Positions 1 to 11,054 of a DNA stretch of 14,922 bases are shown here, in pieces. Position 1 is the first letter of the stretch; each line of letters starts with the position of its first letter. Origin of the DNA: Promethearchaeia archaeon (lineage in GTDB: Archaea > Asgardarchaeota > Lokiarchaeia > Sigyniarchaeales > SOKP01); the NCBI GenBank assembly GCA_029856125.1, contig JAHQWJ010000140.1:1-14922 (forward strand). Direction: 5' to 3'. The position numbers and the translations under genes are program-made. Below the pieces are notes generated by a model. It saw only the letters and a program-made list of their open reading frames with translations, had not been told where the DNA came from and did not search any database.

Positions 1-833
1 CCGCAATACTGGCAATAAACAATATCTTCGGGGGCTTTATTTTTTAAGGAGGGACGGATTAGGAGTTGAGGTGCCATTTCGAAATCGTCTGGCGGGTTTG
101 GAGGGGTGAAAATGTATGGATATGGGAATCGATCATCGCCTTCATCATCGTAATCGTTTCTTTTCTTAGTCTCATCATCCTTTAATGACTGAATAATAGT
201 GTCTTTATCATTATTAGAAGAATCTCGAAATTTTTCAAGGAATAATCTCAAGTAAAGGTGCCAATTTGGAAATATCAGGCTTTCCTTTAATGACTGAATA
301 ATAGTATCTTTGTCATTATCAGAAAAATCTCGAAATTTTTCAAGGAATAACCTCAAGTATACCCTTTTCTTGGAAGAATTTCTCTGAATGTTTGTGACGA
401 GATTAGTAATTAGCAATTTCGCCTCTTTCCCAAGATTTTCTTGTTCGGGAAGGGGATCCGTGACTTCCATAGATTCCAGCCTAAATGCGTTTAAAATTTC
501 TTGCATCTTTTTTTCTAAAAATCCAAGTCTAGCGTCTTTCGTAGTAGATACCAGCAAGACTACCTTTGGGCCAATTTGTGTTACCAAGAGATATCCTTCG
601 CTTCCTTTTATGTATAATTGATCGAAATCTCCTCTTCCCATTTCTATAATTGCCCTTTCGGATAAAGATAGTAAAGCTCCAGTCATTCCAGAGATTCTCG
701 TTTCATCAACACCTTGCGGAAGTGCAGATCCAATGGGAAGCCCTTCAGTAGACATAATAGCAACAGACTTTATTTCGGGGATTGCTCCTAGTAACTTTTT
801 TAAAAGGTCATCCAGGGTATCGACGCTTTCCAT
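1..833 (-). CDS. Roadblock/LC7 (MglB/LAMTOR2-like) domain protein with long C-terminal extension (2x helical repeat, acidic + Pro-rich motif, start of a Zn-ribbon); 3' end truncated by the window edge
   Basis: Not in the ORF track. Manual translation from ATG 833 (in-frame TTG at 842 is an alternative start) is open to position 1: MESVDTLDDLLKKLLGAIPEIKSVAIMSTEGLPIGSALPQGVDETRISGMTGALLSLSERAIIEMGRGDFDQLYIKGSEGYLLVTQIGPKVVLLVSTTKDARLG... This matches the archaeal roadblock pattern (S.EGLPI.S, DE.RI..M..ALLSL.ER, LYIKG..GY, RLG). It continues through ...DDEGDDRFPYPYIFTPPNPPDDF...VYCQYCG. AGGAG Shine-Dalgarno at 846-850. Confidence 0.93.
   Translation of the reverse strand, partial: MESVDTLDDLLKKLLGAIPEIKSVAIMSTEGLPIGSALPQGVDETRISGMTGALLSLSERAIIEMGRGDFDQLYIKGSEGYLLVTQIGPKVVLLVSTTKDARLGFLEKKMQEILNAFRLESMEVTDPLPEQENLGKEAKLLITNLVTNIQRNSSKKRVYLRLFLEKFRDFSDNDKDTIIQSLKESLIFPNWHLYLRLFLEKFRDSSNNDKDTIIQSLKDDETKKRNDYDDEGDDRFPYPYIFTPPNPPDDFEMAPQLLIRPSLKNKAPEDIVYCQYC
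178..359. repeat. Intragenic direct repeat, two 77-bp copies (178-254 and 283-359), period 105 bp = 35 codons
   Basis: Manual alignment gives 5 mismatches in 77 bp. The copies encode YLRLFLEKFRDFSDNDKDTIIQSLK and YLRLFLEKFRDSSNNDKDTIIQSLK in frame. Confidence 0.97.
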
Positions 834-845
834 TACTGACAATTT

Positions 846-905
846 CTCCTTCGCACTAAATACCTATTTTTATTAGATATAAATAGTTTAATAGAAGACT
901 ATTAA
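846..905 (-). promoter_or_regulatory. Putative promoter and RBS of the roadblock gene
   Basis: Minus-strand AGGAG at 846-850, TTTATA box at 878-883, and an adjacent perfect inverted repeat TTAATAG-aaga-CTATTAA at 888-905. Confidence 0.45.
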
Positions 906-1118
906 GAATATATTTTCACTAATAATTTAAATAGATTGGGTATCTTCCCTAACAATCTCAGAGTTTATGGAATCTAAAATCGTTTTTTATCCAATCCTAC
1001 AATTATTAAGAACATTCAGGCTAATAAATTTCACAGTTCTCTCGCTTTTTCACGGGACATAAAAGAAGTTGTTCGATCTAACTATTTTCTACAGATAAGT
1101 ATCTTAAAAATTACGCTC

Positions 1119-1142
1119 AAAAAAATTAAAAATAAATAAAAA
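1119..1142 (-). terminator. Putative archaeal oligo-T terminator after the thiolase
   Basis: The minus strand reads TTTTTATTTATTTTTAATTTTTTT directly after the TAA at 1143-1145. Confidence 0.45.
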
Positions 1143-2333
1143 TTATTTATCGTTTTGTCCCAAAATGGTGATTGCAGCAACGCTAAAGGCTCCACCGAGG
1201 TTGTGACAAAGACCAATTTTCGCGTCTGGAACTTGTCTTCCTTCAGCACGCCCTTGAACTTGCTTGCTAATTTCAGTGAGCATCCGGCAACCGGTACTTC
1301 CAATTGGGTGGCCAAAACTTTTCAATCCACCAGATGGATTTACGGCAGTTTCTCCGTCCCAATTGAATGTGCCATTCTTAAGTTCTTCAGCTGCTTGACC
1401 CCTATCACAAAATTGTAAGTCTTGACAATTTATGAGTTCTGTGATCGTAAAGCAGTCATGGACTTCTGCGGCGTCAATTTGCTTTCTTGGATCGGTGATT
1501 CCCGCTTCTTTATAAGCATATTTCGCTGCTTTAACGGTCGATGGGAACGCAGTAAAGTCTGCTCCAGGTCCACCAGGAGGCACGTACCAAGGAAAATTGG
1601 TGTGAGCAGAAATCGCATTGGCTTTCACCACTACGTAATCATCCGCATGAGCGTAAGATTCTGCGAGTTCTGGTCTTGTAAGGATCAACGCGGCAGCTCC
1701 GTCTGACATTGCACAACAGTCGAACCTACCAAGAGGATCAGCAATCATAGGAGCACTCATCGCAGCATCAATGGTTATTGGTCTTCTGAAATGTGCTTTT
1801 GGATGATGAGAACCATTATCATGGTTTTTTACAGCAACTCGAGCTAAATCTTCCTTTGTCCAACCGAATTCATGGAAACATCTGGTTGCAGCCATCGAAA
1901 ACATTGCGGGTGCAGAAGGTGTTGGGTATAGTGGATGTCCAAATTGCTTAAATCCAGGCAAACCACTGCCTCCTTCGTCCATTAGCTTCTCTACTCCACA
2001 AGCGAGAGCAATGTCATATGCCCCAGAAGCTACAGCAAAAGAAGCGTTACGGAACGCGTCCATACCCGAAGCACAATAATTTTCCACTCGAGTGGCAGGT
2101 TTACCATCCAATCGTAGGATATCTTCTACCATTGCACCTGATAATCCAGTAAAATAGTAAAATATTCCAATCCAGCTCGCATCAACCTCATCCTTGGTGA
2201 TTCCGGCGTCCTTTATTGCGCTTTGGAACGCTTCGAAGAGCAGGTCATGTTGCGACTTGTCCCACCGTTCTCCATATTTTGTCATATCGCAACCGATAAT
2301 CGCGACTTTGTCTTTAATACCATGTCTTACCAT
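1143..2333 (-). CDS. Thiolase, SCP2/archaeal type (acetyl-CoA acetyltransferase family), 396 aa
   Basis: Motifs ENYCASG (nucleophile Cys87), NH.NG, EVHDCFT (HDCF signature) and GHPIGSTG. Start moved from 2381 to ATG 2333 because AGGAGGT lies at 2341-2347 (7-nt spacer) right after the upstream stop, and the conserved KVAIIG strand begins shortly after. Confidence 0.95.
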   Translation of the reverse strand: MVRHGIKDKVAIIGCDMTKYGERWDKSQHDLLFEAFQSAIKDAGITKDEVDASWIGIFYYFTGLSGAMVEDILRLDGKPATRVENYCASGMDAFRNASFAVASGAYDIALACGVEKLMDEGGSGLPGFKQFGHPLYPTPSAPAMFSMAATRCFHEFGWTKEDLARVAVKNHDNGSHHPKAHFRRPITIDAAMSAPMIADPLGRFDCCAMSDGAAALILTRPELAESYAHADDYVVVKANAISAHTNFPWYVPPGGPGADFTAFPSTVKAAKYAYKEAGITDPRKQIDAAEVHDCFTITELINCQDLQFCDRGQAAEELKNGTFNWDGETAVNPSGGLKSFGHPIGSTGCRMLTEISKQVQGRAEGRQVPDAKIGLCHNLGGAFSVAAITILGQNDK

Positions 2334-2340
2334 ATTTATT

Positions 2341-2347
2341 ACCTCCT
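2341..2347 (-). promoter_or_regulatory. Strong Shine-Dalgarno (AGGAGGT) for the thiolase, abutting the upstream stop codon
   Basis: The minus strand reads TAA AGGAGGT AATAAAT ATG. Confidence 0.8.
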
Positions 2348-3793
2348 TTAAGTTCTCCCCCTCACGGGTCGACATTTCCAATAATAATTTTTAAATTCAG
2401 CACCTTCGTGTTCTTTTCTGAATGTTAGCTCGACTCTCATTCCAATTTTGACGTTTTCTTCGGGTTTTTCAATTTCAGTCATATTAACGAGCACCCTACC
2501 ACCACCGTCAAGGTCTATCACGCATCGTGGGACGGGTGTATTGAGATATGCTCCACCAACCAAGTGATCGAGTGTATATGTAAAGAGTTCTCCTTTCTTT
2601 TGGAGTTTCACGGATTCAAGTTGATCATCAGCCCTGCAGACGGAACAAGCTCGTGACATGTCTGGATATTGCACGGTTCCGCAATTCTTGCACTTTACAC
2701 CATACCACTTGTAAACTGAAAGAGTATCACGCCAGATTAATACAGCTGAGCTCTTACGTGTATATCTGTCCTTATTGAGTAATTCTTTAAACTCAATGAA
2801 TTTGTTGTAATTCTTTAGAAGCGTCATCGATTTTTGGTGACCGACAAAACCCATTCTCCCCTTGCTAATAGCTTTAACGCCATCTTTATCTCGAACTTGC
2901 ATTAGAAATGCATCAGCGCCATCTCCAAAACCAGCCATAATGATCTTGGCATCTGGTTTAGGCCTTCGTAAGCTCGCAATGAGGAGCATGAAGGGCATTG
3001 GTGTTCCCGTGTCACCTACTTGAAAGAATGCGCCATTTTGAGCGACTCCCTGGCCAAATTTCATCATTTTAGAGATTCTACTGTGCATTCTTGGGTTATT
3101 ATAGTAATAAGCTGCAATTGCAATGTCCTCAGAAGGATTTAAATTATTGCGTTTCAAAATTTCAGACATAACTTTGGTGATGCTTTCCACATAAAACTTC
3201 GCGTCCATTTTAACTTCAAAAGTTCTGATAAATTCATCCTTATCCGCTCTTTTCCACGGTCCAGTCACATTCGCTGAGACAGAGTAATAATCATCAATCG
3301 AAATTGGGATATTTTCTTCATCCGCAACGAGTAAAGCTGCCGCACCATCTGCAAACCCAAATTCCCACATAGTTGAGGGTTCAGGTTTTCGAGTATCAGC
3401 TGCTACTACCAAAATACTGTTGATATCTTTGTTAGCTTTGACTGTATCAACTGCCCTAGCTAAGGCTGTTGTACCTGCTTTAGTAGAGTCCGTGAAATCT
3501 GCGGTAATGATATCTTCTCTCATATCGAGTACGGTAGCGATTAGTGACGCTGAATCTTTTTCGGTATACACTTGAGTTGTTGAAGCAAAGAATATTCCAT
3601 CAACGGTCTTAGGGTCAATTCCCGCTAAGCAATCGAGTCCTGCTTCTACGGACATTGTTAAGCTGTCCTCATCTACCATCGCTACTGCTTTCGTCCCAGG
3701 AACTGCTGGAAAATCCCATGCTTTCGAGATGAGTTCTCGGGGTAGCATGTACTTAGGTAAATAAGCACCATAACTTTTAATACCAATTGGCAT
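2348..3793 (-). CDS. HMG-CoA synthase/FabH-like domain (catalytic residues lost) fused to DUF35 Zn-ribbon + OB-fold domain, 481 aa
   Basis: N-terminal GIKSYGAYLP, DEDSLTMSVEA, KAGT, DGAAALLV and GFGDG fit the HMGCS fold. C-terminal CKNC(368-371)...CSVC(383-386) followed by G.LFTYT, V.IGMRVELTFRK and YYWK fit DUF35. GAGGT at 3805-3809. Confidence 0.92.
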   Translation of the reverse strand: MPIGIKSYGAYLPKYMLPRELISKAWDFPAVPGTKAVAMVDEDSLTMSVEAGLDCLAGIDPKTVDGIFFASTTQVYTEKDSASLIATVLDMREDIITADFTDSTKAGTTALARAVDTVKANKDINSILVVAADTRKPEPSTMWEFGFADGAAALLVADEENIPISIDDYYSVSANVTGPWKRADKDEFIRTFEVKMDAKFYVESITKVMSEILKRNNLNPSEDIAIAAYYYNNPRMHSRISKMMKFGQGVAQNGAFFQVGDTGTPMPFMLLIASLRRPKPDAKIIMAGFGDGADAFLMQVRDKDGVKAISKGRMGFVGHQKSMTLLKNYNKFIEFKELLNKDRYTRKSSAVLIWRDTLSVYKWYGVKCKNCGTVQYPDMSRACSVCRADDQLESVKLQKKGELFTYTLDHLVGGAYLNTPVPRCVIDLDGGGRVLVNMTEIEKPEENVKIGMRVELTFRKEHEGAEFKNYYWKCRPVRGRT

Positions 3794-3804
3794 TTTATTT
3801 TTTT

Positions 3805-3854
3805 ACCTCTATTTCCTCTTATTTTTGTTGTTTGGATATAAATTATTAATTATA
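3805..3854 (-). promoter_or_regulatory. Putative promoter and RBS of the HMGCS-like/thiolase operon
   Basis: Minus-strand TTTATA at 3837-3842 and GAGGT at 3805-3809, upstream of ATG 3793. Confidence 0.4.
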
Positions 3855-3982
3855 TGATTCTCAATTTTTTAAATTAAATATATTTTGGTTTTTAATTCTG
3901 ACAGAAGATGTTTTTCAAAAACCATTTTTTTTAAGAATGAGGTGGATGCTATTCAATACGAGATGTATTTTGGTACATTCAT

Positions 3983-4477
3983 TCAATCGTTTTCAAATTT
4001 TTTTTCTAAAACAGTAATAATTGGTTTAAATCCCACTTTTCCAAAAACATCTATTAATTTTTGTAATTTTGCGCCTCCGCCATAAGCCATATTGATCCTT
4101 ACGGCCTCACAGCCCCACGATTTAAGTATCTGTGTAGCCCGATCTGCGAGAATTTGACCAACACCTTTTCCGATAAATTCTTTTTTAGTTGCCCAATTAT
4201 TTAGATATCCAATGTACTGTCCTAAGTTGTTTTTCACTGCTTCCAACATTCCCATTGACGCGACTTGACCTGTTGATTTTAGTTCAGCTATTAAGGTTAT
4301 TCGTTTTAAATTTGGTTTAAATTGTCTTAAGCCAGATGTTTCTCGCCACTTTGACTCTACGAATCCGATGTTGAACTTACTTTGAAGTTCTAATAAGATT
4401 TTTAAAGTAGCTTGGTAATCAGATGTTCTATAATTTCTGATGATAATATCTTTTTCTTTAATTAAATCGTCGGACAT
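3983..4477 (-). CDS. GNAT-family N-acetyltransferase, 164 aa
   Basis: IIIRNYRTSDY N-terminal strand and helix; GYLNNWATKKEFIGKGVGQIL acetyl-CoA-binding motif A; FGKVGF equivalent of the Y.K.GF motif; typical length. Confidence 0.85.
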   Translation of the reverse strand: MSDDLIKEKDIIIRNYRTSDYQATLKILLELQSKFNIGFVESKWRETSGLRQFKPNLKRITLIAELKSTGQVASMGMLEAVKNNLGQYIGYLNNWATKKEFIGKGVGQILADRATQILKSWGCEAVRINMAYGGGAKLQKLIDVFGKVGFKPIITVLEKKFEND

Positions 4478-4501
4478 ATTTTTCTACCAATTTTTTATGT
4501 G

Positions 4502-5533
4502 CTATGTAGTTTTTAAGAGTGTTAAATCAATTCTTTTTGATAATAATTTTTCATTGCTCACTTCGTCAATGATAAAGAATATGTACTCGTCAATATGAGG
4601 TATGATAGGTGATATAAAAACTAGTTCTTCTTGTGGAAACCAGTTATCGATGGTTTCAATCATAATTTCTTTTTCAAAATACTCTTTTAGATGATTAATT
4701 TTTACAATTATCCCCTTAACTTCTTCTAGGGAATTATTTTGAACAAGTATTTCCAATTCTTGACTATCTTCTATAATATTTATTTTAAGTAGTATAAACT
4801 GTTTTTTATCGGCAAAGTTCACTTCTCCTTTTTTCTGAGGGTCAAATAATTGAATGCTGGAGAAAGAGCCTTTATAATCCTTACTTTCTATATGCGATAC
4901 ATCTAACCCTTTAAACGCTAAATATGCTATAGCTTTTTGCATTCGTATAGATGTCGCGTCTGAATTTTTTATCACATTAGAAAAAAACGTATTCGTTGTT
5001 TTTTCGATCGAATCCCTAAGTAATTTTTTGATTGATTGGCCAATTTCTATGCGTTTTTTAATTTTCGGAGTTTTAATTACTTCATCCTGCAATATCTCAG
5101 AGTCAATTATTTCAAACAACTTATCTTCATATTCATCTTTAACTTCTTGAGTTAAAATTCGTATAAGTTCGTCCCCAAAAAGCTCAATATTGTTTGGTAG
5201 TGATACTATTATCACAATCGTTTCAGGTGTATCCTCTTGAAGTCCAGATCGTCGTTTTTCTCTTTTTGATTGAGTGAGAAATTTTTTACCGAAGAATGTG
5301 TATCCCTTATACTCAAGATCTATGTGATCTAAAGCATCTGATTCGTTTAAGCTTAAAAACCAAATTGGATGATATTTAATCGGGCGCATAAATGCTTTGT
5401 CGTTCTTATACTTTTCAACGGGATATATTAACAAAGGCATATGCCCTTGAGATTCGTCAAAATATAGGACGTAAACTACTGCTAATTCTTCAAAAGGATT
5501 TTTTTCTGATGTTGATTCAAATAATTCAGCCAA
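4502..5533 (-). CDS. Hypothetical protein, 343 aa, with putative N-terminal longin/uDENN-like domain and beta-rich C-terminal domain
   Basis: Long ORF with TTG start. VVYVLYFDESQGHMPLLIYP resembles the hhhhFD..xG..h...YP first beta-hairpin of uDENN/longin domains. C-terminal LEILVQNNSLEEVKGIIVKI resembles an Ig-like strand pair. The ORF is solid; the domain call is tentative. Confidence 0.7.
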   Translation of the reverse strand: MAELFESTSEKNPFEELAVVYVLYFDESQGHMPLLIYPVEKYKNDKAFMRPIKYHPIWFLSLNESDALDHIDLEYKGYTFFGKKFLTQSKREKRRSGLQEDTPETIVIIVSLPNNIELFGDELIRILTQEVKDEYEDKLFEIIDSEILQDEVIKTPKIKKRIEIGQSIKKLLRDSIEKTTNTFFSNVIKNSDATSIRMQKAIAYLAFKGLDVSHIESKDYKGSFSSIQLFDPQKKGEVNFADKKQFILLKINIIEDSQELEILVQNNSLEEVKGIIVKINHLKEYFEKEIMIETIDNWFPQEELVFISPIIPHIDEYIFFIIDEVSNEKLLSKRIDLTLLKTT

Positions 5534-5649
5534 GAACGGACCCTTATAATCGTTTTTTTTGAACTGCTAAAGAAAGAAATAATTCTTTGTCTAAAAGTTT
5601 AATTAAAAAATATGTATTATTAATTATAACAGTTTTGGAGTGAATATTT
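5534..5649. promoter_or_regulatory. Divergent promoter region
   Basis: 116-bp very AT-rich gap between divergent genes, with TATA-like TTTAATTA and TAATTATA, and GGAG at 5637-5640 before ATG 5650. Confidence 0.45.
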
Positions 5650-6741
5650 ATGCAAATAACTGATGTTAAGACTTATATTTTACAATTGGATTTTAAGATT
5701 AAAATAGGAAGTATGCCGAGACTTCAAGCAAGTGGGCTTTATACAAATCTTAAAACAGATGAAGGAATTGATGGATGGGCCTTGTCGCACTGGAACTTAA
5801 GTAATTTAACTCAGAAACATTTCATTGACAATGCGCTAAGGAAGATGGTTTTAAAAAAAGATCCATTCATGGTCGAAGAAATCTTTCACGAACTATACCA
5901 AAATAGCAATAGGATTATGTTTGGAATACCTCAAGCTACTTCTGCAATCCAAATTGCATGCTGGGATATAATTGGAAAAGCTACGAAACAACCCATATAT
6001 AAACTTCTCGGAGGTAGAAAAAGAGAAGTAAAATGTTATGCGTCAATGCCTCGAGGTTATAAGCCAAAAGCAGCTGTAGGCGCAGTTGGAAGCGCGTTAC
6101 AGCCGGAACTCGGTGGTTTTAAAGCCGTTAAGCTCCGTATCGGGAATGGCGTCAAGAAGGACGAAGAATTGATAAAAGAAGTAAGGGATGCATTTCCAGA
6201 TATCGCTATCATGGTGGATGCGAATTCAGCGTATCATTCTGTTAACGACGCTTTAAAGGTTGCTGAAGTGTGTTATAAACACAGAGTCGAATGGTTAGAG
6301 GAGCCCATACCTACTGATAATCTCGCTGGACTAGCAAAAATACGAGAAAAATCACCTGTACAGATTGCAGGTGGAGAAAATGATATGGGGATTTTTCGGT
6401 TTGAGGATATTCTCTCGAAGGAATGCTTTGATATTGTCCAACCTGATGTGACTCGTAGTGGAGGGTTCTTACAACTAAAAAAAATTGATGCGATGGCAGA
6501 AGTGAAAGGAGTGCAATGTATACCACACATATTTGGCTTTGGACATATCCTGGCTGCTAATCTTCATTTTGTAATGGCCTCTCGCTGCGAATGGTGCGAA
6601 TTTCCGTTTATTCCAGACGAGTATCAATTACTTGAGGAACCTATAAAATGCGTTAAAGGGAAAGTAAAAGCGCTAGATGAGCCTGGCTTGGGAGTAAAAA
6701 TTAATAAGCAGATGTTTGAAGAAAATATTTTAAAAATATAG
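5650..6741 (+). CDS. Mandelate racemase/muconate lactonizing enzyme family protein (enolase superfamily; probable acid-sugar dehydratase), 363 aa
   Basis: SAIQIACWDIIGKA..QPIYKLLGG signature; metal ligands in VDAN, EEP and GGEN; QPD and PH (His-Asp dyad); PGLGV at the C-terminus. Confidence 0.93.
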   Translation: MQITDVKTYILQLDFKIKIGSMPRLQASGLYTNLKTDEGIDGWALSHWNLSNLTQKHFIDNALRKMVLKKDPFMVEEIFHELYQNSNRIMFGIPQATSAIQIACWDIIGKATKQPIYKLLGGRKREVKCYASMPRGYKPKAAVGAVGSALQPELGGFKAVKLRIGNGVKKDEELIKEVRDAFPDIAIMVDANSAYHSVNDALKVAEVCYKHRVEWLEEPIPTDNLAGLAKIREKSPVQIAGGENDMGIFRFEDILSKECFDIVQPDVTRSGGFLQLKKIDAMAEVKGVQCIPHIFGFGHILAANLHFVMASRCEWCEFPFIPDEYQLLEEPIKCVKGKVKALDEPGLGVKINKQMFEENILKI

Positions 6742-6760
6742 TTTTTTTTCTCTCTATTTA
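6742..6760 (+). terminator. Putative oligo-T terminator
   Basis: T8 at 6742-6749 immediately after the TAG stop. Confidence 0.5.
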
Positions 6761-6905
6761 ATTTATACTGTTTAAAATAAATTTTAATCTGATTTTACAT
6801 TACATACATCGAGATTTAAATTATACAAGCATTAAATATTAGAAAATCTATAAAGAAAAATCATTATTTATGTTGTTAATCTTTGATTTGGAGCCCTATT
6901 GATTT

Positions 6906-9900
6906 ATGAAACTTGGTAATAAACTCGAATTAATTTATATTCCCGCATCTTATTGGAATGAGCCATTAAGTGGGTTTGAATTAATTTCTAAAGCAAAACA
7001 ACTTCCTAAAAATTCTAGTTTTTTTCTATTGTGGAATCCAACAAATCCATCAGAAAAGGAGCTTAATGAGATAATTAAGCTCAGCTTTCCAACTATTCCA
7101 GCAAGTAAGTTATTAACTTGTAAAATCAACTTTGCGGTTCCGGTACCTTCATTAAAAGCCGATGGAAATATGGCATCTTCCACGCAATTTTTTGATGTAT
7201 CGTCATTCAATGGAAAAATCATGCCTATTGCACCTACTGTAAAATTACTATTTCAATTGGAAATAGTTGGGAGCCAAGATAGAGGTAAGAAGCGTTTTAG
7301 TAATTCTATTAAGACGTGGGCATTTTTAACAAAATTAATATATGAATTACTAAACAACGGAAAATTCGTTCCTACTTTAGAACCAGCTACAAGGGAAATA
7401 TACACTGGTCAATGGCGCTTATTACTAAAGTCTCAAGAAGATAAAGATCGTTTTAAAACGATCTTAACTAATAGTTCTTGGCCCGCTTTTTGTCTTCCTA
7501 TAAATTTCATTCGAGTAAATGGAGCAATTAAAGCAGATGGCCTTTGGCACCCATCCTACATTTTTTCAAACTTCATGGATACTATAGGAGATTATTTAAT
7601 TCGTTCCACGCTTAATAAAAGTGATTTTCAAACGTTTAAAGAATTTTATAGTACAGAAATTAAAAAAGAAATGGATCCAGAGTTTAAATTGGGTTGGGAT
7701 TACAAATTTCTTAAAGCCCTCATCAGTAAAGATCCTAGTTTCAAAGTAGAAGAATTTTATGAAACTATTTTACCAACACTAATTACGAATTGGACTCAAT
7801 CTGCTCAAGGACTTACGCTAAAGCACGGTTTTACGTTCAATTTAGAATTAAAATACCCTAAAAAACCAGAAGATGATTGGCCATTATCATTTTACCTTTC
7901 TTCACAAGACGGTACAAAACCTATTCCTTTAAGTGAACTATGGGAAGGTAGTAGCATTAAAAGAAATTTTGAAACCGATGGACAATTTTTAGAAATAATT
8001 CTAAGAGCATTGGGTGCAGCATCAAAAATATTCCCACCAATTAAAAGAGCTCTATTAAAAACCATAAAAAGCGAGATTAAACTTACATCCAGAGAAGTAA
8101 TGGATTTTTTAAGATATCCAAAAGATTTATTGATCCAAAGTGGATTTAATATTATTCTTCCTGATGTATTCAATAGAGGAGGAAAACAACGTTTATCAGC
8201 AAAGCTAATTATTCGTTCAACAAAAGATGATAAAAAGGTAAAAAAAGGGACTTACTCCGTTTTACCATCAATGTTTGATATCGATTCAATGTTAGAATCT
8301 AGATGGGAGGTCTCTCTTGAAGGAAAAATAATTTCTGATGAAAAATTCGATAGTTTGATTAGCTCCAGCGAACCGTTAATCAACTTAAGTGGAAAATGGA
8401 TATTAGTTGATCAGCAAGATATTGAAGATTTAAAGAGCATTAAAGATGCTGGAATAAAAAATTACATGGATGCTCTTAAACTTGGATTAACGGGAAAGAC
8501 TCAACTACAAGAAAACGGTATTAAGTACGATGTTATTGTCGAAGGAGAATTAAGCGAGATTATCGAAAAATTACAAACTATAGAATCATTTGAAGAAATT
8601 CCTTCTTCTTCATCGTTTAACGGAAACTTGCGCCATTATCAGCAGGAAGGGCTAACATGGATGGCAAATATGGCAAGATTCAACTTTGGATTATGTTTAG
8701 CTGACGATATGGGACTTGGAAAGACTATTGAAGTCATAGCTTTTTTAAGTTATCTTAAAGATCAATTTCCTAATAATCTGGGAAGTGTTTTAATTATATG
8801 TCCTACTTCAATATTATTCAATTGGCACCGTGAGTTAAAGAAATTTGCTCCGGATTTAGATGTAGTGCTTCACCATGGAGCTAAGCGAATTACGGAAGCA
8901 TCAGGAATTCCTGAGTTTTTAAAACCGCATCGAATTTTTCTTACTTCCTATGGAACTATTAGAAATGATATTGATTTTTTAGAAACAATTGATTTTAGCG
9001 GAATCATCGTTGACGAGAGTCAAAACATGAAAAATTACGCTTCAAAACAAACTAAAGCAATAAACAAGTTAAAAAGCCAATTTAGAATTTGTTTAAGCGG
9101 TACTCCAATAGAGAATCGTTTACTTGAGCTTTGGACGCTTTTTAATTTCTTAAATCCCGGTTTATTAGGAAACAGGGTGGATTTTCAAAAAAAGTACGTC
9201 TTGCCAATTGAGCGATTTCAAAATCAAGAAATAATTGATAATTTAAAGCTAATTATTGCTCCCTTTATCCTACGTCGCGTCAAATCAGATAAATCCATCA
9301 TAGATGATTTACCAGAAAAGAATGAAATGAAAGTAATTATCGAATTGACTGAAGACCAAGTTAAACTCTACAAAGAACTTGTAGAAAATACGTTGAAAGA
9401 GATTGAAACTTTGTCAATAGATAAAAGAAAGAAAAAAGGGTTAATATTAGCCTTATTAGTAAAATTGAAACAGATTTGTAATCATCCCTTTCAATATCTG
9501 AAAATCGATATTACATCATTAGATCTGGATGAAAAAATGGAGGAAATTGTCTCCCAATCACAAAAATTAAAGAGATTATTAGAAATGACTGATGAAGTAA
9601 TCTCAAATGGAGAAAAAGTCTTGATTTTCACTCAATTCACGCAAATGGGGAATCTCTTACAAAAAATTCTTGAACACAAGTATAAATTCAAGATTCTTTA
9701 CTTTCATGGAGGCGTGCAAGAAAAGAAACGAAAAGAAATTGTTGATGAATTTCAATCAGAAAATATCGATAGCCCTCCAATATTAATTTTGTCTCTGAAA
9801 GCGGGTGGAACGGGCTTAAACTTGACCCAAGGAACTACAGTTGTCCATATTGATCGTTGGTGGAATCCCGCAGTTGAGGATCAGGCAACGGATAGGGCGT

Positions 9901-10091
9901 ATCGAATTGGTCAAAAATCAGTAGTAAATGTTTATAAATTCATTTCTAAAGGAACTATTGAAGAAAAAATCGACTACTTATTAGAAGAAAAGCGAGATCT
10001 AGCAGATAAAATCGTTGAATCCACAGGAGAGTCTTGGATCTCAAATTTAGATGATGAAAAATTAAAAAAATTGTTATTATTAAGTAATTAA
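6906..10091 (+). CDS. Snf2/Swi2-family ATPase (prokaryotic SSO1653/YwqA-like), 1061 aa
   Basis: LRHYQQEG Q motif, LADDMGLGKT (I), CPTS (Ia), VDESQ (II), SGTPIEN (III), LRRVK, IFTQF (IV), SLKAGGTGLNL (V), WWNP and QATDRAYRIGQ (VI). About 570 aa of N-terminal region, including a PLINLSGKWILVD segment typical of the DUF3670-like region. Confidence 0.96.
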   Translation: MKLGNKLELIYIPASYWNEPLSGFELISKAKQLPKNSSFFLLWNPTNPSEKELNEIIKLSFPTIPASKLLTCKINFAVPVPSLKADGNMASSTQFFDVSSFNGKIMPIAPTVKLLFQLEIVGSQDRGKKRFSNSIKTWAFLTKLIYELLNNGKFVPTLEPATREIYTGQWRLLLKSQEDKDRFKTILTNSSWPAFCLPINFIRVNGAIKADGLWHPSYIFSNFMDTIGDYLIRSTLNKSDFQTFKEFYSTEIKKEMDPEFKLGWDYKFLKALISKDPSFKVEEFYETILPTLITNWTQSAQGLTLKHGFTFNLELKYPKKPEDDWPLSFYLSSQDGTKPIPLSELWEGSSIKRNFETDGQFLEIILRALGAASKIFPPIKRALLKTIKSEIKLTSREVMDFLRYPKDLLIQSGFNIILPDVFNRGGKQRLSAKLIIRSTKDDKKVKKGTYSVLPSMFDIDSMLESRWEVSLEGKIISDEKFDSLISSSEPLINLSGKWILVDQQDIEDLKSIKDAGIKNYMDALKLGLTGKTQLQENGIKYDVIVEGELSEIIEKLQTIESFEEIPSSSSFNGNLRHYQQEGLTWMANMARFNFGLCLADDMGLGKTIEVIAFLSYLKDQFPNNLGSVLIICPTSILFNWHRELKKFAPDLDVVLHHGAKRITEASGIPEFLKPHRIFLTSYGTIRNDIDFLETIDFSGIIVDESQNMKNYASKQTKAINKLKSQFRICLSGTPIENRLLELWTLFNFLNPGLLGNRVDFQKKYVLPIERFQNQEIIDNLKLIIAPFILRRVKSDKSIIDDLPEKNEMKVIIELTEDQVKLYKELVENTLKEIETLSIDKRKKKGLILALLVKLKQICNHPFQYLKIDITSLDLDEKMEEIVSQSQKLKRLLEMTDEVISNGEKVLIFTQFTQMGNLLQKILEHKYKFKILYFHGGVQEKKRKEIVDEFQSENIDSPPILILSLKAGGTGLNLTQGTTVVHIDRWWNPAVEDQATDRAYRIGQKSVVNVYKFISKGTIEEKIDYLLEEKRDLADKIVESTGESWISNLDDEKLKKLLLLSN

Positions 10092-10100
10092 AAACTAAAA

Positions 10101-11054
10101 GTGATAAAAATAGACAATCGTAAAAAAGAATTCATGGAAAATCGTCGTATTAAGCGCAAAGGGCCAGATAAACCCCAAAGAAAGAGTGAATACGAGAAAG
10201 AACGCACTCGTGAAGAAGTTGAGCAAATTAAAAAAAATCTCGTAAATTTTGCCAAAACTTCCTGGGGAAAACAATGGATTCAATCTAATTTACAAATAGG
10301 ACGGCCCTTTAGAATGCAAAGGGGGATTGAATATGTTAAAGATGAACGACGAATTGAAAATCTTTCTATTAGTACAGGTCAAATCTTCGCAACCGTACAA
10401 GGTACCGCTCCAACGCCATATAGAGTGAAAATAAATTTTGAACCGATCCTCGAAGAAGGATGGAAAATCATACTTAAAGAACTAACAAAAAAAACCATCA
10501 ATCTGATAGAATTATTAGAAGGATTATTACCAGAAGATATAATTACAATTTTTGACGAGAATGGATATTCGCTATTTCCAAACGCTTCGAAAGGCTTAAA
10601 TGCAACTTGTTCTTGTCCCGATACGGCAATTCCATGCAAGCACATTGCTGCTGTAATTTTATACATCGCCCGCGTTTTGGATTATAATCCATTTCTACTG
10701 TTAGAATTGCAGGGAAAATCTAAAAGCGAAATTCTTAACGAATTAAGTTTAGGGCAAGGAGCAAAAAGTAAAAATGAAGCAGAAAAAATGTCTACTACAA
10801 GTAACGTTGAGTTTAAATTTAACGTTCCAAAAATCTCTATTGTAGAATTATCAAGCGAACAAAAAAAATCAGGCACAGATATTGAAGATTATAATATTGG
10901 GTTTACATTTAGAAAACCGGGAAAAATTATAGAAACTTTAGAAAATCTAGGCGTTCCTCAAACTATAGAAAATAAGGCTTTTGAGATCGTATTAAGATCA
11001 ATTTATCGCAAAATTACATCAAAAATACATGACACATCTTTAGAACTAGGTTAA
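10101..11054 (+). CDS. SWIM zinc-finger protein (YwqB-like partner of Snf2)
   Basis: CSCPDTAIPCKH = CxCxnCxH SWIM motif; WGKQW, RMQRG..Y, ATVQGT..PY.V and PFLLLELQG are typical of the family. Starts 9 bp after the Snf2 stop (GTG 10101; alternative ATG 10134). Confidence 0.92.
   Translation: MIKIDNRKKEFMENRRIKRKGPDKPQRKSEYEKERTREEVEQIKKNLVNFAKTSWGKQWIQSNLQIGRPFRMQRGIEYVKDERRIENLSISTGQIFATVQGTAPTPYRVKINFEPILEEGWKIILKELTKKTINLIELLEGLLPEDIITIFDENGYSLFPNASKGLNATCSCPDTAIPCKHIAAVILYIARVLDYNPFLLLELQGKSKSEILNELSLGQGAKSKNEAEKMSTTSNVEFKFNVPKISIVELSSEQKKSGTDIEDYNIGFTFRKPGKIIETLENLGVPQTIENKAFEIVLRSIYRKITSKIHDTSLELG

Follow-up and report, generated by a model that had tools for sequence, protein, structure and literature searches.

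The roadblock gene at the left end of the window, the 14,922-nucleotide stretch of Lokiarchaeia DNA analysed here, is, as its sequence comparisons indicate, a real patchwork of pieces from three core genes of its own genome and a fixed end-piece. Each part matches a separate gene of the same genome, and the donor matches extend to the DNA level. An origin of this patchwork by recurrent DNA recombination is strongly supported. The function proposed below is held with moderate confidence. As a whole, the explanation that we modestly favor is that of a tagged variant subunit that would join the core roadblock dimer and that was made by recurrent DNA recombination.

The chimeric ORF occupies positions 833 to 3 of the minus strand and encodes residues 1–277 without interruption until the frame exits the contig. 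Because window position 1 is the start of the contig (G000:C139:1), no closed ORF was called for this gene. In independent assemblies, the complete protein has 298 residues (P0002, 99% identical; full gene L001:8001-8897, the remainder lying past the end of our contig). At least 24 contigs carry it, drawn from several samples of two data sources (ENA and JGI), and its sequence closes with a CxxC-x11-HxC zinc knuckle. Four homologous variants at 90–70% identity (P0003–P0006) keep the layout unchanged. A contig from a separate study covers window positions 1–1368 with 13 differences and no gaps, and a stop, a frameshift or a misassembly is therefore excluded. Assembly artefact as the source of the chimera is likewise ruled out by the independent assemblies together with this gap-free contig. 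A sequence-only reading of the stretch had proposed a roadblock domain running in frame into a long tail and had suggested a search for a stop or frameshift behind the domain and an extension of the contig; the open frame, its continuity and the recovered C-terminus all agree with that proposal. Short contigs in one RNA-seq run cover positions 332–556 across the joints, with none at the thiolase end, which hints weakly at transcription; run X19, probably of DNA, was left out as expression data.

All parts of the chimera lie on the minus strand. Residues 1–104 (positions 522–833) are a copy of the core roadblock gene C12:44152-44517, with 84% amino acid and 79% DNA identity and 15 substitutions, one of which falls on the modelled dimer interface. 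The homology to C12 reaches 103 nt upstream of the start codon, and positions 834–937 represent non-coding DNA from upstream of C12:44152 that was copied along with the gene. Pfam Robl_LC7 (PF03259) is matched at residues 8–96 (E 4.7e-14, 52.3 bits against a cut-off of 23). This match fits the roadblock domain of about residues 1–117 proposed earlier, but only residues 1–104 are of roadblock descent. A six-residue joint and a gelsolin C-terminal piece follow (residues ~105–139, positions 417–521), with C19:6159-7091 as source. Residues ~111–139 match the last part of the gelsolin domain in this gene together with its linker (83% DNA identity over 59 nt). The donor contributes just its last helix and linker (donor residues 96–139), and the Pfam scan gives no PF00626 match that would indicate a whole, actin-binding gelsolin domain in the chimera. 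The swapped-in helix accounts for the unusual last helix that the sequence-only reading had correctly noticed in the roadblock domain, together with the change from AAMTA to SGMTG.

The next part is a three-helix piece (residues 140–184, positions 282–416) that matches the C-terminal helices encoded by a core gene for a 140-residue helical protein, C126:291774-292196, with 67% amino acid and 75% DNA identity. It is followed by a nine-residue spacer and an in-frame second copy of two helices (positions 168–281), residues 140–222 being two copies of part of the helical gene. The internal repeat, already suspected earlier, is 77 nt long and 94% alike with a period of 105 nt (positions 178–254 and 283–359), and is found in every variant examined. 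The helical donor is single-copy in 22 of 24 genomes of the genus, and the core roadblock is 89–100% identical across five relatives, compared with 41–87% for tail-bearing copies; for these reasons we regard the donors as core genes. The helical gene itself (L043) has no Pfam or NCBIfam match; its best structural match has a Z of 6.0 among helical bundles, which is uninformative, and Atlas matches score 0.90–0.91. The chimera ends with a tail of ~70–75 residues (residues 223–298). Its first part (positions 84–167) holds an acidic run and the motif FPYPYIFxPPxPPDD, which is predicted to be disordered and whose prolines are invariant across the family. The second part (positions 3–83) holds a linker and the first CxxC of the CxxC-x11-HxC knuckle, which takes the form CxxC..CxxC in other family members.

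The tail is a conserved and reused unit, apparently an undescribed family that terminates more than 100 different patchworks. A profile search among 1.84 billion representatives returned 133 clusters at E<=1e-10, and the tail is C-terminal in their proteins except for two long repeat proteins. Its prolines and cysteines are invariant across 146 divergent proteins. No family or structure was matched in Pfam, NCBIfam or PDB sequences, in line with the earlier expectation that this architecture is not an annotated family, and the best ESM Atlas match (0.78) lies under the lead level. We found no description of the tail motif, its arrays or the recurrent recruitment from core genes in the literature accessible outside subscription. 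The knuckle most likely derives from the abundant Lokiarchaeia zinc-ribbon family PF13240/PF13248/DZR; 66 of the 146 tail-bearing proteins match PF13240. It differs from these ribbons in that its last ligands are HxC in this clade and in that it is tied to an acidic aromatic-proline motif.

The passengers of the tail map to about 35 genes of this genome. They comprise gelsolin-domain genes, roadblocks, Rab- and MglA-like GTPases, longin-like proteins, response regulators and profilin, and further a coiled-coil/polyproline protein, an Elf1-like protein and a RING protein. A donor in this genome could be assigned for 100 clusters, 73 of them with an ESP-type donor, where 16 'longin-like' labels, which are not confirmed, and 6 'gelsolin?' labels were assigned by eye; 17 of the 100 combine at least two donors. 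Pfam recognizes roadblock (20), Ras (12), receiver (7) and gelsolin (6) domains among the 146 tail-bearing proteins. By a rough count, the donor families make up ~83 of ~3300 ORFs of the genome, and no ribosomal or metabolic donors are found among the passengers. The survey of Asgard genomes suggested earlier was run on 400 genomes and places the tail in two genera of one Lokiarchaeia family (33 of 134 family genomes, 0 of 265 others), with 15 of 41 and 18 of 54 genomes per genus; as the profile was built from this clade and 14 candidates were scored per genome, 'not found' outside the two genera does not equal absence. The NCBI labels Hermod-, Hod- and Thorarchaeota on some tail matches were not taken as range. 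Tail-bearing genes often stand in tandem arrays.

The thiolase gene (positions 1143–2381, minus strand) lies outside the chimera and is the fixed left anchor of a hypervariable site. At this site, G007 has roadblock plus tail alone and G044 two tail genes; L057 carries five chimeras together with a remnant of the tail, L062 has chimeras built on Rab, and G011 and G004 contain unrelated genes. The syntenic gene of G007 and G044 consists of roadblock and tail without the middle. Between the chimera and the thiolase gene lies a block of ~100 nt (positions 984–1084, minus strand) with a BRE/TATA-like core at 1024–1052. The block also precedes many other chimeras as well as a Rab paralogue on C140, and it forms the left boundary of the unit common to relocated homologues. 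In L056, the chimera is flanked on both sides by direct copies of it. From its consensus, the block is a putative promoter; a sigma-70 scan, whose model is unsuited to archaea, gave nothing. The same chimera occurs in at least three contexts and is carried with ~240 nt of upstream DNA.

Several observations trace the route of the pieces. The gelsolin piece of chimeras is marked by derived residues (E-R to D-P/T, and V/I to P). These residues and the helical-to-tail joint are common to P0103, P0125, P0064 and P0122 and do not occur in six core gelsolin orthologues; the middle therefore comes from the chimera pool, not directly from the core genes. Between P0002 and P0003, dS is 0.58 in the first part, 0.03–0.09 in the middle and 0.71 in the last part (permutation p 1e-4), which therefore indicates recombination between close homologues. 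In the tree, each lineage's tail-bearing roadblocks fall with that lineage's core roadblock. Their monophyly is rejected by the AU test (p 3e-4 with and 1e-4 without long branches; 4e-3 for third positions of the 255 nt), and capture of, or conversion by, the resident core gene is therefore recurrent. A single ancient roadblock-tail fusion with vertical inheritance is rejected by the same tests on 255 nt. The tail tree mostly follows host clades, and some tails disagree with the host genus. Concerted evolution of tails within genomes was discarded, as the nearest neighbor lies in the same genome or contig for just 11 of 33. Tail remnants are present. The reading frame is preserved at every joint, across two different deletions and through the duplication. 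No terminal inverted repeats or target duplications of note were found in four loci, where direct repeats were restricted to the tail and the promoter block. Reverse transcriptase (PF00078) was not found in G000, and no transposase or integrase is evident among the neighbors by similarity to the ORFs of this genome. The copied promoter-like DNA, the homology upstream of the C12 start codon and the TATA-like block seen also at a Rab paralogue, together with the negative searches for a reverse transcriptase and for element ends, favor DNA recombination over an RNA-derived retrocopy. A viral origin was rejected, since three 16-residue matches in viral contigs belong to unrelated proteins.

The evidence supports well an origin in which, in two Lokiarchaeia genera, core regulatory genes are copied piecewise and time and again by DNA recombination into sites bearing the constant ~70-residue tail, and in which tandem members then reshuffle through crossover or gene conversion. 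In this account, a roadblock-plus-tail gene took up its middle, that is the gelsolin end and the helical piece already joined to a tail, from the older chimera pool, and the helical piece was duplicated in frame afterwards. The proposal that a roadblock paralogue captured a C-terminal module thus holds as far as a paralogue with an added C-terminal module goes, but the extension consists of three unrelated pieces. It is also not one adaptor module, as the middle was recently shuffled and is absent from the relatives' syntenic gene, and the tail alone is conserved and reused.

The surroundings of the chimera offer further observations. In L001, its neighbors are the thiolase, a second roadblock-plus-tail gene and a beta-helix protein, and no GTPase gene adjoins; the small GTPase sought beside the roadblock gene is not there in this species. 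The second chimera (L001:8916-9422) starts 18 nt past the stop and joins a copy of the short roadblock C9:36107-36391 (90% amino acid identity) to the same tail; it is absent from the G000 assembly, where it falls in the gap between C139 and C40. In the L057 array (526-7461), the thiolase is followed by a tail remnant, a Rab, gelsolin, helical-piece and tail fusion, gelsolin plus tail and the roadblock chimera. The array continues with Rab, profilin piece, receiver and CDC48-N, and then with a receiver-kinase N-terminal piece fused to Rab. These last two members lack the tail, so mosaics also form without it. Two other composites without the tail, the receiver-domain gene C40:2-1881 (L053, downstream of the chimera locus in L001) and the Rab gene C140:69969-71144, are fused to the same unnamed Lokiarchaeia domain. 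Clusters in which roadblock, Rab, gelsolin, profilin and Elf1-like genes are duplicated, some bearing and others lacking the tail, occur at more, unrelated sites (L136 in G054:C30, L137 in G255:C72, L139 in G239:C2 and L151 in G222:C37). A frequent chimera donor is the 147-residue core gene G000:C63:109233-109676 (L045), a candidate actin regulator that has a coiled coil, a polyproline run and, by eye, a WH2-like C-terminal helix but no Pfam match. A profilin-plus-tail gene with an internal stop (L167) in a MAG labelled Patescibacteria is probably on a misbinned Lokiarchaeia contig. P0110, a roadblock N-terminus in frame with an rve integrase domain, probably reflects an insertion sequence within a roadblock gene.

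Elsewhere in the window, positions 1143–3793 (minus strand) encode the thiolase and, overlapping it, an HMG-CoA-synthase-like protein with a fused ChsH2/DUF35 zinc-ribbon and OB-fold. A conserved 343-residue gene at 4502–5533 (minus strand), beside a GNAT gene, has no Pfam or PADLOC match and an N-terminus that appears longin-like by eye. An SNF2 helicase followed by a zinc-finger gene of SWIM type, assigned by eye, is found at 6906–11054 (plus strand); SNF2 and SWIM are the usual prokaryotic pair.

Despite the replaced helix, the AF2 model shows a roadblock fold with helix 7–17, five strands, helix 44–64 and helix 103–116, and the gelsolin-derived helix 103–116 occupies the place of the last roadblock helix. 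This is the arrangement of a full roadblock domain, whose five-stranded sheet has alpha2 on one face and both terminal helices on the opposite face. The pLDDT of blocks is 70–92 over the roadblock including the swapped helix and 66–92 over the helical bundle. Fairly confident helices are predicted for residues 136–228, a folded structure for the knuckle and disorder for the motif. Top Foldseek matches are Asgard roadblocks, with an rmsd of 1.5–2.1 Å to 9JUE and 7F8M. Dimerization of roadblock domains is a textbook case. For residues 1–124 with the core roadblock, ESMFold2 scores 0.82 against 0.02 for the best control, all runs agree in 100% of contacts and the partner has a pLDDT of 82; the mark is reached by 51 of 78 solved and 2 of 108 mismatched pairs. 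Since like complexes are already solved, this model demonstrates likeness, and at this level a heterodimer with a stand-alone roadblock, as suggested before, is predicted. The alpha2/beta3 dimer surface is intact in the model; the interface comprises 36 positions, and one of the 15 substitutions falls within it (p 0.01). When 31 tail-bearing roadblocks are compared, conservation at the interface does not significantly exceed that of the remaining positions (p 0.067). A48S, A49G and A52G lie on alpha2, outside the modelled dimer interface.

On this basis, the product would fold as a full roadblock in which a gelsolin helix replaces the last helix and the alpha2/beta3 dimer surface is kept, and it would pair with the core roadblock, or with itself, as a variant subunit. 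The tail, with its disordered aromatic-proline motif and zinc knuckle, may act as a shared docking or address tag on roadblock-GTPase complexes. The three substitutions on the outer alpha2 face may alter GTPase regulation, and the middle would serve mainly as a folded spacer.

Selection acts unevenly along the gene. pN/pS, estimated from pooled, non-independent pairs, is 0.34 for the roadblock and 0.36 for the tail, with both confidence intervals below 1, and the sequences thus indicate that both parts are under purifying selection. Constraint on the core roadblock gene is far stronger (dN 0.009, dS 0.64). The middle, with 0.69 (CI 0.44–1.12), is not distinguishable from neutral; its helical part gives 0.54 (0.31–1.03) and its gelsolin piece 1.2 (CI 0.6–6.8). 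The low values of roadblock and tail may in part be imported by recombination with older paralogues. Positive selection is not shown by the pN/pS analysis. The patchy family and the tail remnants imply that members are dispensable.

This dispensability touches on a different explanation, that the genes are by-products of a recombination hotspot in which duplicated pieces pile up behind the repeated promoter block and tail, most members, the present gene among them, being useless and selection merely purging misfolded or interfering products. Patchy presence, the rapid turnover at the thiolase site, broken remnants and the near-neutral middle are all in its favor, as is the fact that protein searches detect intact frames only. 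We nevertheless consider it unlikely, given the invariant prolines and cysteines across 146 divergent proteins, a pN/pS of about 0.35 in roadblock and tail, and joints, deletions and duplication that are all in frame. The donors also form a narrow functional set, and in the model the fold survives the helix replacement. Far less probable is a single capture of a coherent adaptor of repeat, motif and zinc ribbon, a stable scaffold whose helical repeats recruit partners. The fair folding confidence of the helical part and the layout kept in five variants down to 70% identity would suit it, but the extension comes from three sources and was gained stepwise, the relatives' gene lacks the middle, and the middle is near neutral.

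The mobility of the chimera, with at least three contexts sharing ~240 nt of upstream DNA, the direct promoter-block copies around it in L056 and some tails at odds with the host genus, could point to a non-autonomous mobile element or a virus that picks up host gene fragments in the manner of Pack-MULEs or Helitrons and carries the chimera as cargo, with the tail as element end. We rate this as improbable, given that neither terminal inverted repeats nor a transposase among the neighbors, a reverse transcriptase in the genome or a true match in viral contigs was found, that the tail is protein-coding and conserved as protein, and that its tree largely tracks host clades. Equally improbable to us is, by analogy, a decoy or sensor array, in which a constant tail, joined to copies of hub proteins under attack by viruses or competitors, would report the bound effector or remove it. 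Plant NLR receptors carry integrated decoy domains, and the constant part with variable copies of conserved host hubs, the hypervariable tandem loci and an evolution faster than that of the donors resemble such a system. Against it, the tail has no effector or enzyme domain, a PADLOC search of eight member proteins and of the neighbors gave no anti-phage defence match, no defence genes were seen around the loci, and positive selection was not shown. We would give only a small chance to the broader idea that tail, promoter block and hypervariable sites form a dedicated diversification system building signalling proteins from ESP modules (roadblock, Rab, longin, gelsolin, profilin and RING under one docking tag), its products possibly being decoys or sensors.

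The tagged variant subunit that we favor can be compared with several known systems. Pack-MULEs and Helitrons capture gene fragments, integrons hold cassette arrays and NLRs carry integrated domains. Our loci resemble these in having host pieces in new ORFs, variable arrays behind a shared promoter and constant plus variable parts, but no transposase, integrase, element ends or effector domain was found, and the evidence points to ordinary recombination among repeats. Structures of Asgard roadblocks have been published (Tran et al. 2024, PMC10933270). These stand-alone proteins (Thor-RB 7F8M, MK-D1 RB 7YH1 and 9JUE), the top Foldseek and sequence matches, share the fold with its N- and C-terminal helices. 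They are single domains of ~120 residues, whereas the chimera has a C-terminal helix of gelsolin origin followed by ~175 residues and is a fast-evolving accessory copy, not the core roadblock gene. MglB of Myxococcus and Thermus (PMC3199381) and LAMTOR2/3 of Ragulator have the same fold and the dimer mode modelled for the chimera. MglB dimerizes via alpha2/beta3 and binds the GTPase on the alpha2 side of the dimer (PMC3199381), and three substitutions of the chimera fall on this MglA-binding face. In contrast to MglB, the chimera has no cognate GTPase in its operon, and its tail is unrelated. Liu et al. (10.1101/2020.10.19.343400) report ESP domains in architectures restricted to narrow Asgard lineages and ascribe them to duplication and domain shuffling. 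There, shuffling is inferred from domain lists, and the passages considered describe neither a constant tail on more than 100 sub-domain mosaics nor hypervariable sites with tandem arrays, nor a resident core gene that is recruited repeatedly. Relative to the literature covered, the tail, the arrays and the recurrent core-gene recruitment are new, while Asgard roadblock structures and the inferred lineage-restricted ESP shuffling were known.

The chimeras were found in two genera only, and Lokiarchaeia are not the lineage closest to eukaryotes. Within this range, our findings indicate that domain shuffling is still under way in relatives of eukaryotes. As a rule, ESP shuffling is deduced from architecture lists; here a single set of genomes lets one read donors, recipients, intermediates and joints side by side, and the rate, the route and the selection of shuffling thereby become measurable. 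In practical terms, when ESP paralogues or 'novel architectures' are counted in these genomes, chimeras inflate the totals. The constant tail on more than 100 passengers points to one putative binding partner through which small-GTPase, roadblock and actin-regulator modules would be linked in Lokiarchaeia. If the reading as a diversification system were true, these loci would be a living model for the formation of new multidomain architectures in Asgard archaea.
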